The notes beneath the pieces were generated by a model that worked only from the letters and a program-made list of their open reading frames with translations, made no database searches and was not told the DNA's origin. A program made the position numbers and the translations under genes. A stretch of DNA of 64,000 nucleotides, taken from NCBI GenBank assembly GCA_029262375.1, contig JAJCZM010000049.1, forward strand, positions 3,992-67,991, given 5' to 3'. Below, one piece after another: positions 15,539 to 32,014 of this stretch. The stretch's first letter is position 1. Every line of letters begins with the position of its first letter. The stretch is from Deltaproteobacteria bacterium. Its GTDB lineage: Bacteria > Desulfobacterota > Binatia > UBA1149 > SPBQ01.

Positions 15539-15627
15539 GCGAGGATGGCGGAACTGGCAGACGCGCTAGGTTGAGGGCCTAGTGGCCTTAATTGGCCGTG
15601 GGGGTTCAAGTCCCCCTCCTCGCACCA
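15539..15627 (+). tRNA. tRNA-Leu (anticodon GAG), class II with long variable arm, CCA encoded
   Basis: Acceptor stem GCGAGGA/TCCTCGC. Anticodon stem CTAGG/CCTAG with loop TTGAGGG. T-arm GGGGG-TTCAAGT-CCCCC. 3' terminus ACCA. The position after secG mirrors the E. coli secG-leuU arrangement. Confidence 0.9.
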
Positions 15628-15707
15628 CTACAACCGAACCTTTTCAAGAACTTGCGTGCCCCGCGCAATGGTCACGAGGCACAAATCGCCCGCTACCGTC
15701 ATCTCGC

Positions 15708-17033
15708 TTATTCGCCAGCAAGCTCGGGAATGAGATCCGCAAGCAACTCAGCCGGCCAGTAACGCGGGATCTGTCGATCACCGTAGTAGAGCGATGGCCC
15801 GATACGCATTCGGGAGATTTCCTCGGATGTAAGATCGTATGCACTGCGCGTGTGGTTCTCGGCCTCTCGCGCAAGCGCTACGTCAGCTACGATCGCCTGC
15901 AGCGTCTGTTCCGACTCGAAGTCTGTAGCGAATCGATCGGGATCCAGACCGAGCGCATCAGCCAGCTCACTCAGCGAGCGCGATTCAATAGAAGCACAGT
16001 CGGGCAACAACGACTCGTAGGCCTCAATCAGTTGTCCCTGCTTCGCCGCCGCATGGATCATACGCGCTCCCTCGAGCGCTCCCGGAAGCGTCCGCGTGCG
16101 AAAAGAACTATGAACCAGCGACCAGGCCGTGCCTTCAGCCTGCGTCGCATCCATCAGCGAGAATCCACCGCCCACCTGCGCGTAGTCCTCTCGGAATCGC
16201 GCCATGTCGAGTCCAGCACTGCGAGCCGCTTCGAACATCTCCGCCTCACCCAGCGCAAGAAACTTCGGATCAGGTGGGAACTCCGCTAGGAACTCGCGAT
16301 ACTTCCCTTGATTGATCGATGCGAGACCGCCGCGTAGCAACGTCTGATGGTATCGATCGACACCGTCACCGAGAAGCATACGCACCGTGATCGCCAGCCG
16401 ATTCGGATACAGATCAACCAATTCACGAAGTCTGTTGTGGGCATACTCCGGATAGCCGCACGCCGCATCGACGAACGCTGTAAGACGGACCGGAGCATCG
16501 GCGGGACCGAGTCGTGTCCAACCACGGTCCGGCAATTCAGGTGCAGGCAGCTTGGGGACGCGATCCGGACGAAGTTCGTCGAAGCGTTGGATATGACGCG
16601 TTCCCAAAACCTCTGCGATTGACGGCGTACTGCCCAAGGACGGACACGGCCTGTCTTCAACGACCACGTCGACAATGCCGCCCGTCTTCGGATATCCGTC
16701 GCAGCCAGTCCTCGATACGTACTCGACCGTAGACTTATCTGCCGGTGTCAGTCGCGCATTTGGTGTCCGAATCCAAGATGTCTCGCCGCACGGAACACTG
16801 CGAGCACCGAGCGGCCGCAGAGTGACAATCGCCGCGTCTGGCGCCTCATCTAGATGCGCCTCCGTAGCGTCGTTTTCTAGTCGCTCGCGATGCTCGATCG
16901 CCGGAACGCACGAGACCATCTCGGAATGAAAATGGCGGCAGTAGTCTACGCGCTCACAGGACGTGGCCTCAGCATCGTGAGACGAACCCGCAACGAAGAG
17001 TAAGATCGCAAGTCGGACGAGAACTAGCTTCAT
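15708..17033 (-). CDS. Secreted DsbA-like / thioredoxin-fold protein (CxxC position degenerate: ACGYPEY)
   Basis: The track ORF runs to 17129. A signal-peptide start MKLVLVRLAILLFVAGSS lies at 17033. The C-terminal ~250 aa resemble DsbA-family thiol-oxidoreductase domains by eye. A paralogous truncated copy lies at 28819-29496. Confidence 0.6.
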   Translation of the reverse strand: MKLVLVRLAILLFVAGSSHDAEATSCERVDYCRHFHSEMVSCVPAIEHRERLENDATEAHLDEAPDAAIVTLRPLGARSVPCGETSWIRTPNARLTPADKSTVEYVSRTGCDGYPKTGGIVDVVVEDRPCPSLGSTPSIAEVLGTRHIQRFDELRPDRVPKLPAPELPDRGWTRLGPADAPVRLTAFVDAACGYPEYAHNRLRELVDLYPNRLAITVRMLLGDGVDRYHQTLLRGGLASINQGKYREFLAEFPPDPKFLALGEAEMFEAARSAGLDMARFREDYAQVGGGFSLMDATQAEGTAWSLVHSSFRTRTLPGALEGARMIHAAAKQGQLIEAYESLLPDCASIESRSLSELADALGLDPDRFATDFESEQTLQAIVADVALAREAENHTRSAYDLTSEEISRMRIGPSLYYGDRQIPRYWPAELLADLIPELAGE

Positions 17034-17309
17034 CACATGCGGTATATACGATCTGGAGAAGACGCGTCGAGAGTCGCTTCGCCGCCGGGCGAACAGACTC
17101 GAAGCGGAGTGATCGGGGCAGCCAGACACCGAAATCCAATTGGGATGACGGGAAACCGATCAGCGTGGACTAGCGTCGCGTGATTCGCAGCCATCTCCCA
17201 GATACTCAACTCAGCGTCACAGCCATCCGTGCGTTACAGATGGCTGTGACGCTCATACAGCCGGGACATGCGCACCGGTGAGGCGTGCTCGTCAACGACC
17301 AATACGCCC

Positions 17310-18119
17310 CTAGTTCGCGGGCACGATAGACGAAACACTCACCGTCGGCGCCGTCACCGTGTCCGCCATATCAATCCCGACGCTCACGATCGCGAAGTCA
17401 GACGTAGCCGGCGGGCCGCCAGATTTCGCGAAACGGCATGTGAAGATCGAACCAGGACCCTGGATGCCGTCACCCTCGATCATCATCGCGTTGAGAACGC
17501 GAGTGTCGTCTGCATCAAGTAGCGCGACGGCATCAGGATCGACCAGCGGTGTCGTACAGGAAACCGAAGCGCCGCGCCCTTCGAACTCTCCTCCGGCAGC
17601 GCCGTACTGAACATCAACCTGGATACCGAAAAGTTCGGTAGTGTCGTCCAAGCCAAAAGTGACATCGTAGACATCGCCACGCAGAGCGGGCGTACAAATC
17701 AACGAGGTCTTCCATTTCGTGAAACTCCGCGTAGCGAAGCCGTCGGAAAATATCTCTTCGACTATGCCCACCGACGGGCACTTAGCGCGGTAGCAGATCT
17801 TGTAGAATGCGTCCGGGTCGCCATCCAACGTCCCGAAAGGTAGCTCCGATTCGTCGATGCTCATCGAAACCGGCCGGCAGATCTGTTTCGCCTTGAGCTT
17901 CACGCGACAACCGTCTGTATTCGGCAACGTCGCGCCGGCAGCGCTGAGTTCAGCGGAGAACGAGCCCGAGATACCATCGCGAACCCGGAAACACTGCATA
18001 TGGTCCAAGCCTTCAGCCCTGGCCGATGAGATGCCTTGCGGCGGTATGAGCGACGCGGCCAGGAATACGAGTGCAACGAACGAACGACGAACTAATACAT
18101 TGAGCGTAGTGCTATGCAT
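17310..18119 (-). CDS. Secreted two-domain protein; C-terminal half possibly cohesin-like
   Basis: The track ORF runs to 18410, but its first 97 codons are Cys/Arg-rich and overlap the upstream gene. The start MHSTTLNVLVRRSFVALVFLAASLIPPQGISSARA at 18119 is a good signal peptide. The C-terminal region DVTFGLDDTTELFGIQVDVQYG...GSIFTCRFAK...FAIVSV resembles the cohesin sequence pattern. Confidence 0.6.
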   Translation of the reverse strand: MHSTTLNVLVRRSFVALVFLAASLIPPQGISSARAEGLDHMQCFRVRDGISGSFSAELSAAGATLPNTDGCRVKLKAKQICRPVSMSIDESELPFGTLDGDPDAFYKICYRAKCPSVGIVEEIFSDGFATRSFTKWKTSLICTPALRGDVYDVTFGLDDTTELFGIQVDVQYGAAGGEFEGRGASVSCTTPLVDPDAVALLDADDTRVLNAMMIEGDGIQGPGSIFTCRFAKSGGPPATSDFAIVSVGIDMADTVTAPTVSVSSIVPAN

Positions 18120-18178
18120 GACATACCTCCGAATTGTGAAAACGTTTTTAGGAATCGTGACTCGGTCGATCAGAACCG

Positions 18179-30682: not shown

Positions 30683-31256
30683 GCACAATCCTGCAAGCTG
30701 AAATCTTATGCGGCCGCGTTCAGGGACCTGGGCCTATCGGCCCGTCACCATTGTCAAAGCTATGAGCAGCTTCAGTTGCTTTTCATCAACGCTAGCTCCG
30801 AGAAGTTCTTCCTCGGGAGAAGTCCCGTTTTGAACGAGAATGATCTGTGTGATGATGGTCTTCCAAGAACCGCCGAGGCCTGGTTTGATGGTGGTCTTTA
30901 CGACTCCATCCGTGACACCATCTTTCGTCTTGTAGGTGCTCTGTGTCCGTCGAGAACATCCACACGCACCACCACGGCGCAGACGGCATTATCATTCATC
31001 ACCCGTTGCTCACCGAAGCGTCAGATCCGACGCCCCACCACCGGCTACCAACTGGTACGTCGCCGACGAAACGATATCCAAGACGAACGTTTGTATTGAC
31101 GGACCTTATGTCAGATGGGGCGGAACAGCGGGGCCGATCGGGTGTCTTCCCTAACGCCGAGGCGCTTCTCAGGTAAGCGGCGTCTATCGATCCTCTGGCA
31201 GCGGGAATTGTGCCCAACGGCACAAATCGGGGCATTCCCGACCCGCGCGGTCGCGC

Positions 31257-31526
31257 TCAATCATCGTAGACCTCTCGCCGATGACCGATCTTCACGATCA
31301 GCACGGAGTTCGGCGGTTCGATCGTATAGACAACGCGGTAGTCACCGACGCGCAGTCGTCGCGCACCTTTGAAGCTGTAGCGCAGCGGCTTGCCGAACTC
31401 GATAGGACTCGAGCCGAGCTTTTGCTCGATCGCCCTGCGGACGCGTCGCTTGGCCGTGGTCGAGAGTTTCGGAATGTCGTCACGAACAACGCTTTCCAAG
31501 TACTCGATCCGGTACTTCAATCCCAA
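31257..31526 (-). CDS. relE: RelE/ParE-family type II toxin
   Basis: 89 aa. GKPLRYSFKGARRLRVGDYRVVYTIEPPNSVLIVKIGHRREVY matches the RelE/StbE pattern. Confidence 0.85.
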   Translation of the reverse strand: MGLKYRIEYLESVVRDDIPKLSTTAKRRVRRAIEQKLGSSPIEFGKPLRYSFKGARRLRVGDYRVVYTIEPPNSVLIVKIGHRREVYDD

Positions 31527-31738
31527 GCCTTGTCGTGAGAGATTCGCTTCTGCTTCTTAGCGATTCGGTCGTCGGCTATCCGTGAGAAGTGCAGGTCCTC
31601 TTGATACTCCAACGCCTCCTCGATCAAACTCAAACCGACGCCCGCTACAGATTGGTCGCGTTGGCCCGAGAGGCGCTCGAGCGCCTTGTAAACATCGTCA
31701 TCGACCGTGATGTTGATCCGCTTTTTCGTTGTCGGCAT
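31517..31738 (-). CDS. Ribbon-helix-helix antitoxin (RelB/CopG-like)
   Basis: 73 aa. The N-terminal KKRINITVDDDVYKALERLS is an RHH strand-helix. 10-nt overlap with the toxin gene. Confidence 0.75.
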   Translation of the reverse strand: MPTTKKRINITVDDDVYKALERLSGQRDQSVAGVGLSLIEEALEYQEDLHFSRIADDRIAKKQKRISHDKAWD

Positions 31739-31817
31739 CGCTCACTACCTCGATTGTGAGTGTAACACCAGTGCGACACCTCGGTCAAGCACATCCGCGG
31801 CCTGCCGCGTAGTTCAG

Positions 31818-31990
31818 CGAATTGTGCCCCGAGGCACAGTTCCCGCCCAACCATGCTCGACGGGGCCTAACCGGATTCGCGAAGACGCAGTCTCTTCGTG
31901 GCACGTTCTTCCGCGCGACGCGCTGAGATAACTACTAGGCGGTTGCTTCGCGTGACCAGTACTCTCGCCCTCGCCATGTCGGGCCCAGGA
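31818..31990 (+). repeat. Island right-end element, copy c (with ~75-bp insertion before the att-like copy)
   Basis: GAATTGTGCC-CCGA-GGCACAGTTC palindrome at 31820-31842, then CCGCCCAACCATGC, GCCTAAC and the hairpin CGAAGA/TCTTCG. Confidence 0.7.
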
Positions 31991-32014
31991 TTCAAGTCCC
32001 CCTCCTCGCACCAC
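31991..32014 (+). repeat. Direct copy 4 of the tRNA-Leu 3' end (att-like)
   Basis: Identical 24-mer. The next ~24 nt (CTTCAGCTGAACTTTTTCAACACG) still resemble the sequence after the real tRNA (CTACAACCGAACCTTTTCAAGAAC). Confidence 0.9.

Follow-up and report, generated by a model that had tools for sequence, protein, structure and literature searches.

The 64-kb stretch of DNA that we analyzed (called the window here; contig JAJCZM010000049.1) comes from an uncultured Binatia-like bacterium. It contains a tRNA-Leu(GAG) gene followed by a tandem array of segments separated by direct copies of the 3' end of that tRNA. We propose that four, and probably five, integrated units make up the array, one behind another from the 3' end of the tRNA gene. 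The explanation we consider probable is tandem accretion through site-specific integration at the T-loop of related elements that now lack an integrase, as in cis-mobilizable elements (CIMEs). Numbered from the tRNA, unit 1 spans 15630-27281, unit 2 spans 27307-28715, unit 3 spans 28741-31990, and unit 4 lies beyond the fourth copy of the repeat. An initial annotation of the window had described the locus as repeated site-specific integration into a tRNA gene. Our analysis supports that description through the register of the repeats in the T-loop, the attP-like appearance of the flanking arms, the composition of unit 1, and the end of synteny at the tRNA.

The genuine tRNA-Leu(GAG) gene occupies 15539-15627 on the + strand (ARAGORN; Rfam RF00005, 51 bits). 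The 24-mer TTCAAGTCCCCCTCCTCGCACCAC from its 3' end occurs at 15605, 27282, 28716, and 31991, always on the + strand and without a mismatch. Four matches were reached in 0 of 100 dinucleotide shuffles. Aligning the sites showed that the block common to all four copies is 25 nt long, one T longer than the 24-mer. We refer to this block as the core, and its exact copies lie at 15605-15629 (core 1), 27282-27306 (core 2), 28716-28740 (core 3), and 31991-32015 (core 4), all on the + strand. The core contains the T-loop, the 3' half of the T-stem, the 3' strand of the acceptor stem, ACCA, and CT, ending 2 nt past the CCA. Identity begins at the first base of the T-loop (15605) in every copy and extends to 28 nt between copies 1 and 2. 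The region from the T-loop to the 3' end was reportedly listed by Williams in 2002 as one standard crossover sublocation of tRNA-targeting tyrosine integrases. An approximate search allowing up to 6 edits found no further or degenerate cores in the window. The four identical, same-orientation copies and the segment sizes of 11.7, 1.4, and 3.3 kb given in the initial annotation were confirmed. Its end of the array at 32014 does not stand. The array reaches approximately 32.8 kb and includes a HigBA toxin-antitoxin unit, our unit 4, that had been left outside.

The repeat junctions are real features of the genome. Logan contigs, which represent an independent short-read assembly of run SRR15505517, were recovered via exact-protein look-ups and correspond to window positions 9331-15584 (L001), 16193-28745 (L084), and 29304-40020 (L082). 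L084 crosses core 2, the single-gene unit 2, and core 3, which it spans from the left side, and L082 crosses core 4. Because these contigs run through the junctions, the repeats are not mis-joins. Stretches of the array without Logan coverage are confined to the interiors of an 802-bp repeat (described below), a place where an assembler working with k-mers would be expected to break off. The initial annotation had named assembly chimeras as a danger to its reading, and one could argue that the repeats are an assembly or binning artefact in which contigs each ending in a tRNA-Leu fragment were joined. The source is a metagenome-derived contig, and L001 stops inside the tRNA at 15584. However, that break is upstream of the core, and the independent assembly crosses copies 2, 3, and 4 as well as unit 2, so we find an artefact hardly credible. 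L001 ends 21 nt short of the core, within the variable arm of the tRNA. The 5' half of the tRNA is probably shared with other organisms in the sample, which would explain the break, and the break is therefore no evidence of heterogeneity at the att site.

The sequences flanking the cores are related as well. A homologous right arm of approximately 95 nt, not described in the initial annotation, precedes cores 2, 3, and 4 and ends unit 4. The palindrome that opens each right arm reads TTGTGCC-N4-GGCACAA in units 1, 3, and 4 but TTGTCCG-TCGA-CGGACAA in unit 2, and a TTCCCGCCCAACC-like sequence comes next. The distance from palindrome start to core is 92 nt in unit 1 and 91 nt in unit 2. The right arm of unit 1 (27181-27281; all arms are given on the + strand) carries the palindrome TTGTGCC-CTGA-GGCACAA at 27190-27207, followed by TTCCCGCCCAACCATGC. 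The arm of unit 2 (28620-28715, palindrome 28625-28642) is homologous to that of unit 1 but has diverged from it. Identity to the unit 1 arm is 82% for unit 3 (31812-31990, palindrome 31822-31839), which has approximately 80 extra nt before the core, and approximately 81% for unit 4 (32717-32800, palindrome 32719-32736). No core follows the unit 4 arm; at the expected position only 7 of 24 positions match the core, which is the level of chance. Another perfect palindrome, TTGTGCC-CAAC-GGCACAA (31208-31225, + strand), is found inside unit 3 with no adjoining core and may be an internal boundary or a terminator. The idea that the right-arm repeat is a known RNA family was rejected, as Rfam gave no match at gathering thresholds across the whole window or at E≤1 across 26.9-33 kb.

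Left arms, likewise absent from the initial annotation, follow the cores. The first ~65 nt past cores 1, 3, and 4 are related and hold GAGGCACAA or GGCACAA 49 nt after the core. The left arm of unit 1 (15630-15707) contains the inverted repeat TTGCGTGCC...GAGGCACAA, with GGCACAA at 15678, and that of unit 4 (32016-32131) has GGCACAA at 32064; both are 49 nt past the core. The left ends of these two units are approximately 78% identical over 90 nt that include the core (15602-15691 versus 31988-32077). In unit 2, the left arm (27307-27432) has CGACGGACAAT at 27350-27360 (+45), then GACGGACAC. The half-site thus falls +45 to +49 nt after the core across the units. It also agrees between both ends of each unit, with unit 2 having its own variant at both of its ends. 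The ends of unit 2 share an 11-mer (reached in 5 of 2000 shuffles), and unit 2 matches the other units over no more than 6-7 nt. Of the nine plus-strand GGCACAA occurrences in the 64 kb, seven mark unit ends or lie between genes of the array. When the right arm, core, and left arm of units 1-4 were joined in reconstructed form, they aligned as homologues. Judged by sequence, the reconstructed sites represent one family of putative attP-like sites, and the arm motif is a candidate arm-type binding site for an integrase or an accessory protein.

Comparing the window with itself revealed an 802-bp repeat, also not described in the initial annotation, that begins exactly at the core in units 1 and 3 (15605-16406 versus 28716-29517; ungapped, 93% identical, 54 mismatches). 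The repeat spans the left arm and the last 233 codons of a dsbA-like gene, and the unit 3 copy is cut at its 5' side. A repeat that starts at cores 1 and 3, together with the resemblance of ~65 nt past core 4 to the sequence past core 1, could suggest that the tRNA 3' end and its flank were copied by segmental duplication or unequal crossing-over. Divergence and indels would have followed, and no site-specific integration would be involved. However, the sequence past core 2 is unrelated to that past core 1. In all copies, the homology to the tRNA stops exactly at the start of the T-loop, and the sequences upstream of the copies share homology with one another but none with the tRNA body. Between units 1 and 3, divergence is also far greater in the right arms (82% identical) than in the left ends (93%). 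GC content at third codon positions (GC3) is 0.61 in the dsbA-like gene beside cores 1 and 3, which is island-like rather than host-like, so the 802-bp repeat is element DNA rather than host flank. The two dsbA-like copies differ with a dS of 0.13 and a dN of 0.05. This dN/dS of 0.39 indicates that part of the divergence arose under selection on a working protein. The dN/dS ratio, the diverged right arms, and the island-like GC3 argue for two related but separate elements, one since damaged, better than for a recent local duplication of host flank. We regard local duplication as a very unlikely origin of the array.

Unit 1 is compositionally foreign. GC3 across its cargo (15708-26998) is 0.59-0.67, compared to 0.69-0.80 in the flanking housekeeping genes (secG, at 0.66, is an exception). 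The tRNA-Leu(GAG) gene lies directly after secG and closes a gap-pgk-tpiA-secG-tRNA cluster. In a collection of species representatives, the nearest genomes are Candidatus Binatia metagenome-assembled genomes (MAGs) and MAGs labelled 'Myxococcales', with triosephosphate isomerase (TIM) identity of only 68%. The secG-tRNA-Leu(GAG) arrangement and the upstream gene order are common to the window and these MAGs up to the tRNA. Window genes from 15.7 to 64 kb have no counterpart in the ≤9.5 kb downstream of the tRNA held by the relatives' loci. Synteny therefore breaks at the tRNA-Leu gene, though at 68% TIM identity the relatives compared are distant. Among 21 relatives with secG-tRNA-Leu, no second core was found in the ≤9.5 kb examined downstream of the tRNA, and these genomes are too distant to define an empty site.

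We searched sequence collections for relatives of the element. The pattern of core plus left arm had no match in metagenome contigs, and a 20-mer from the right arm had no match in IMG/VR. The same 20-mer matched one metagenome contig (L083) inside a coding region, and we dismissed this match as chance.

No recombinase gene was found in the array. We ran Pfam on every open reading frame (ORF) of at least 200 aa in the array and on the main genes in the rest of the window. Six-frame stop-to-stop pieces of at least 40 aa were also scanned with Pfam in the unassigned stretches at 17.1-18.25, 19.55-22.65, 26.95-27.48, and 30.65-32.88 kb, with HigB, HigA, and ParE serving as positive controls. PHROGs and NCBIfam were run on the hypothetical proteins. 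These searches detected no tyrosine or serine recombinase, transposase, or excisionase in the 64-kb window, and no match to PF00589 or to a resolvase. The statement in the initial annotation that neither the segments nor the window encode a recombinase thus holds at the profile level, and the search for a divergent integrase among the ORFs likewise matched no recombinase family. We also considered an SSV-type integrase gene split by the att site and rejected it, as core-crossing ORFs in the six-frame Pfam scans gave no match.

We infer a tyrosine-type recombinase, a binding role for the arm motifs, and the following order of events. In each insertion, an element site composed of right arm, 25-nt core, and left arm would have recombined with the T-loop-to-3'-end region of the tRNA. 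The tRNA would thereby have been made whole again, with a further core marking the far end of the insert. Accretion would have followed as more elements entered the tRNA or a core already present, with neighboring units parted by right arm-core-left arm hybrids. The halves of the T-stem around the 7-nt loop may have served as inverted core-type sites in the genuine tRNA; site alignment showed that this 5-7-5 palindrome exists only in the genuine tRNA and not in the other core copies. The units could be deletion derivatives of once autonomous elements or non-autonomous riders, and they may by now be dead remnants. Excision today would need a tyrosine-type integrase from elsewhere in the genome or from an incoming element. 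Toxin-antitoxin pairs and XRE-type regulators, which the units carry, are typical cargo of integrated elements, and we counted them in favor of accretion.

Several observations weigh against accretion of integrated elements as the origin of the array. We identified no integrase, excisionase, relaxase, or type IV secretion system (T4SS)/conjugation gene that links the units to a known integrative and conjugative element (ICE), integrative and mobilizable element (IME), or phage. We likewise found neither an empty or differently filled site nor a circular junction, and no unit turned up a second time. The unit proteins are confined to one sample and its MAG, and pattern scans of metagenome and viral contigs found no related element. 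Unit 4 lacks a distal core, and unit 3 holds a truncated gene and a 575-bp non-coding stretch; all three are signs of decay. Some palindromes sit upstream of antitoxin operons and could be operators instead. Finally, the covariation of the end motifs depends on a single divergent unit, unit 2.

We compared the array to known integrated elements. CIMEs are defined as att-flanked elements that have lost their integration and transfer genes, and tandem accretion with CIMEs has been described in streptococci (PMC5704250). The CIMEs related to ICESt1 and ICESt3 of Streptococcus thermophilus and the tRNA-Lys composite islands of S. agalactiae resemble our locus in that they are stacked in tandem where a conserved gene has its 3' end and are bounded by direct att repeats. 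Units 1-3 are flanked by perfect cores in the positions of attL and attR, and unit 4 has the proximal core only. The units fall within the CIME definition because the att sites are kept and every unit is without a recombinase. With regard to descent from an ICE or IME, the XRE-type regulators and toxin-antitoxin pairs hint at mobile ancestry, and the units have no relaxase, T4SS, or integrase remnants. No homologous element was present in any searched collection. Unlike the streptococcal cases, our locus has no partner ICE or IME, either among the units or elsewhere in the 64 kb, its smallest units measure only 0.8-1.4 kb, and its host is a Binatia-like bacterium rather than a Firmicute. The initial annotation had read the segments as CIME-like elements or as a cassette-like system serviced by a recombinase encoded elsewhere. 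The first term fits the definition, but a cassette system has no positive support beyond the small units and conserved arms.

A precedent in layout comes from Dehalococcoides. Tandem islands in this genus are arrayed downstream of one small-RNA gene, ssrA, with direct repeats of approximately 20 bp from its 3' end (PMC3146451). Insertion occurs at the T-loop, and a conserved motif adjoins each repeat (PMC3146451). An integration module is found in 16 islands, and the authors suggest that array islands without the module might be cis-mobilizable elements (PMC3146451). Array layout, T-loop insertion, and a repeat-adjacent motif are common to both systems. The two differ in that the Dehalococcoides target is a tmRNA and 16 islands carry a serine-recombinase (DsiB) module, whereas the target here is tRNA-Leu and no unit carries a recombinase. 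The initial annotation had considered the lack of an integrase and the presence of a single-gene segment unusual. Both facts hold, but they are less unusual than claimed because integrase-less members of tandem arrays have already been described among the Dehalococcoides ssrA islands (PMC3146451). Classical tRNA islands and prophages with a tyrosine integrase have in common with our array an intact tRNA at one boundary and, at the opposite boundary, a repeat of the 3' part of that tRNA, as well as the T-loop register and putative arm-type sites on both sides of the core. They differ in having an integrase gene beside the att site, which is absent from every unit in our array.

A different possibility is that the locus is an active gene-capture array, in which small non-autonomous cassettes, each with its own site, are inserted, excised, and shuffled by a dedicated tRNA-Leu-specific recombinase whose gene lies elsewhere in the genome. 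Integron cassette arrays and the IMEX and Acinetobacter pdif modules consist of small units that lack their own recombinase, each carry a recombination site, and often encode HigBA- or ParE-type toxin-antitoxin pairs. Our locus would have a comparable working mode, with arrayed units of 0.8-3.3 kb and 1-4 genes, plus one unit of 11.7 kb, resembling integron cassettes or Xer-dependent dif modules with a tRNA-derived core. The end motifs covary within unit 2, and units with only a toxin-antitoxin pair are like those of chromosomal integron arrays. All four cores are perfect although the adjoining arms are only 65-93% identical, and the arm architecture is kept in every unit, including one- or two-gene units of 0.8-1.4 kb; these two features point to possible continuing function. 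Against a gene-capture array, no recombinase is encoded within 64 kb, there are just 4-5 units with mixed gene orientation, and decay is suggested by the truncation of a gene in unit 3 and by the lack of a core after unit 4. A second instance of an arm or unit was not found in approximately 240 million metagenome records, IMG/VR, or the protein collection. We consider active gene capture unlikely.

The known cassette systems also differ from our locus in their sites. There is no intI or attI here, and the head of the array is secG-tRNA-Leu. The junctions consist of the tRNA core and the TTGTGCC-N4-GGCACAA palindrome, with no attC (RYYYAAC/GTTRRRY ends), and gene orientation is mixed. The array is not an integron because it lacks intI/attI and attC and its genes are in mixed orientation. 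We found no 28-bp dif-like site (11-6-11) of the kind used by IMEX and pdif modules; the boundary repeat is a fragment of the T-arm and acceptor stem, and all cores are in direct orientation. Because there is no dif-like site, the array is not a Xer/dif system. It is a long shot that the units are living, non-autonomous 'mini-islands', as small as one gene or one toxin-antitoxin pair, each with a complete attP-like site around the tRNA-Leu 3' end and unit-specific arm motifs. Moved by a recombinase from elsewhere, they would constitute a tRNA-anchored integron-like array for gene capture in an uncultured phylum.

The cargo differs from unit to unit. Unit 1 begins with a gene for a secreted, dsbA-like orphan protein (15708-17033, - strand); the cargo of this unit was assigned from Pfam and the L084 gene calls. 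More genes follow on the - strand: a secreted protein of 269 aa (17310-18119), a reprolysin-like protease (18179-19621; Pfam), a lipoprotein (19739-20440), and two small XRE-type helix-turn-helix (HTH) genes (20875-21132 and 21154-21399). A gene for a 277-aa protein (21931-22764) is on the + strand. The remaining cargo is a cluster that encodes an ABC ATPase (22739-23377, + strand), a KAS III protein (23394-24407, - strand), and an FtsX permease (24404-26998, - strand). No close homologues of the unit 1 proteins were found, and the FtsX permease had no homologue above 33% identity. In the 283-bp gap between the start of the FtsX gene and core 2, we observed a terminator-like hairpin on the + strand (27096-27125), formed by GCCACCGCCCGGTTTGTGGCGGC and followed by CCTTTTT. 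There is no + strand gene upstream of this hairpin.

The sole gene of unit 2 (27433-28584, - strand) codes for a secreted right-handed beta-helix protein of 383 aa (Pfam Beta_helix, weak match), in agreement with the single-gene segment in the initial annotation. No homologue above 40% identity was found for this protein. Unit 3 contains the 5'-truncated copy of the dsbA-like gene (28819-29517, - strand), which retains the last 233 codons, and a gene for a 343-aa protein with a nucleotide cyclase domain (29651-30682, + strand; Pfam Guanylate_cyc). The cyclase gave the sole result in a defence-system scan, a weak match to the Pycsar cyclase PycC (E 5e-8). The 575 bp without a called gene lie 3' of the cyclase gene, before a toxin-antitoxin pair (region 29651-31256), and are possibly a decayed effector gene. 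The pair consists of a ParE-family toxin (31257-31520) and a ribbon-helix-helix (RHH) antitoxin (31517-31738), both on the - strand. Unit 4 contains only the genes for a HigB toxin (32132-32422) and a HigA antitoxin (32450-32716), both on the + strand. Both toxin-antitoxin pairs were assigned by Pfam and the L082 gene calls. Beyond unit 4, an amidase gene that ends at 32834 has host-like GC3.

Outside the array, the genes upstream of the tRNA were assigned by Pfam as tsf, rpsB, rho, rluD, ribF, pal, tolB, a TonB-like gene, exbD, exbB, gap, pgk, tpiA, and secG. Within the tol/exb cluster, the TonB-like gene (ORF 9464-10441, - strand) has internal tandem repeats (9856-10187) that encode a long Pro-Lys-Pro-Glu run. 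Downstream of the array, we found a 65-bp direct repeat (35597-35661 and 41825-41889, 91% identical). The first copy makes up the 3' terminus of another HigA-like HTH gene, this one solitary (35395-35700), and the second copy is a short remnant encoding the same C-terminal peptide. The repeats bracket a 6.2-kb segment that encodes a 1211-aa DUF4215/PPC/dockerin protein and a 612-aa orphan, with no recombinase inside. The arrangement resembles a further insertion in which the target gene had its 3' end replaced. Across 35821-47547, successive genes encode large proteins that are secreted or orphans, including the DUF4215/PPC/dockerin protein, an 878-aa VWA-domain protein, and several without a family. 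GC3 in this region is intermediate (0.67-0.73), and the accessory region may extend well past the repeat-bounded array.

Stacked, decayed integrative elements are a well-known pattern, and here the pattern is seen in an uncultured Binatia-like bacterium. As a case of islands accreting at a tRNA gene, the locus is clean and unusually compact, and it comes from a lineage about which little is known; every unit keeps the site architecture and none carries a recombinase. Should the units prove to be fossils, the locus would be an ordinary one, yet it is useful for annotation because additional tRNA fragments of this kind would be read as att scars rather than pseudo-tRNAs or assembly errors. If the units are still moved in trans, the locus would show that tRNA-targeting integrases can service passengers the size of cassettes, and genomic islands would be less sharply separable from integron-like arrays.

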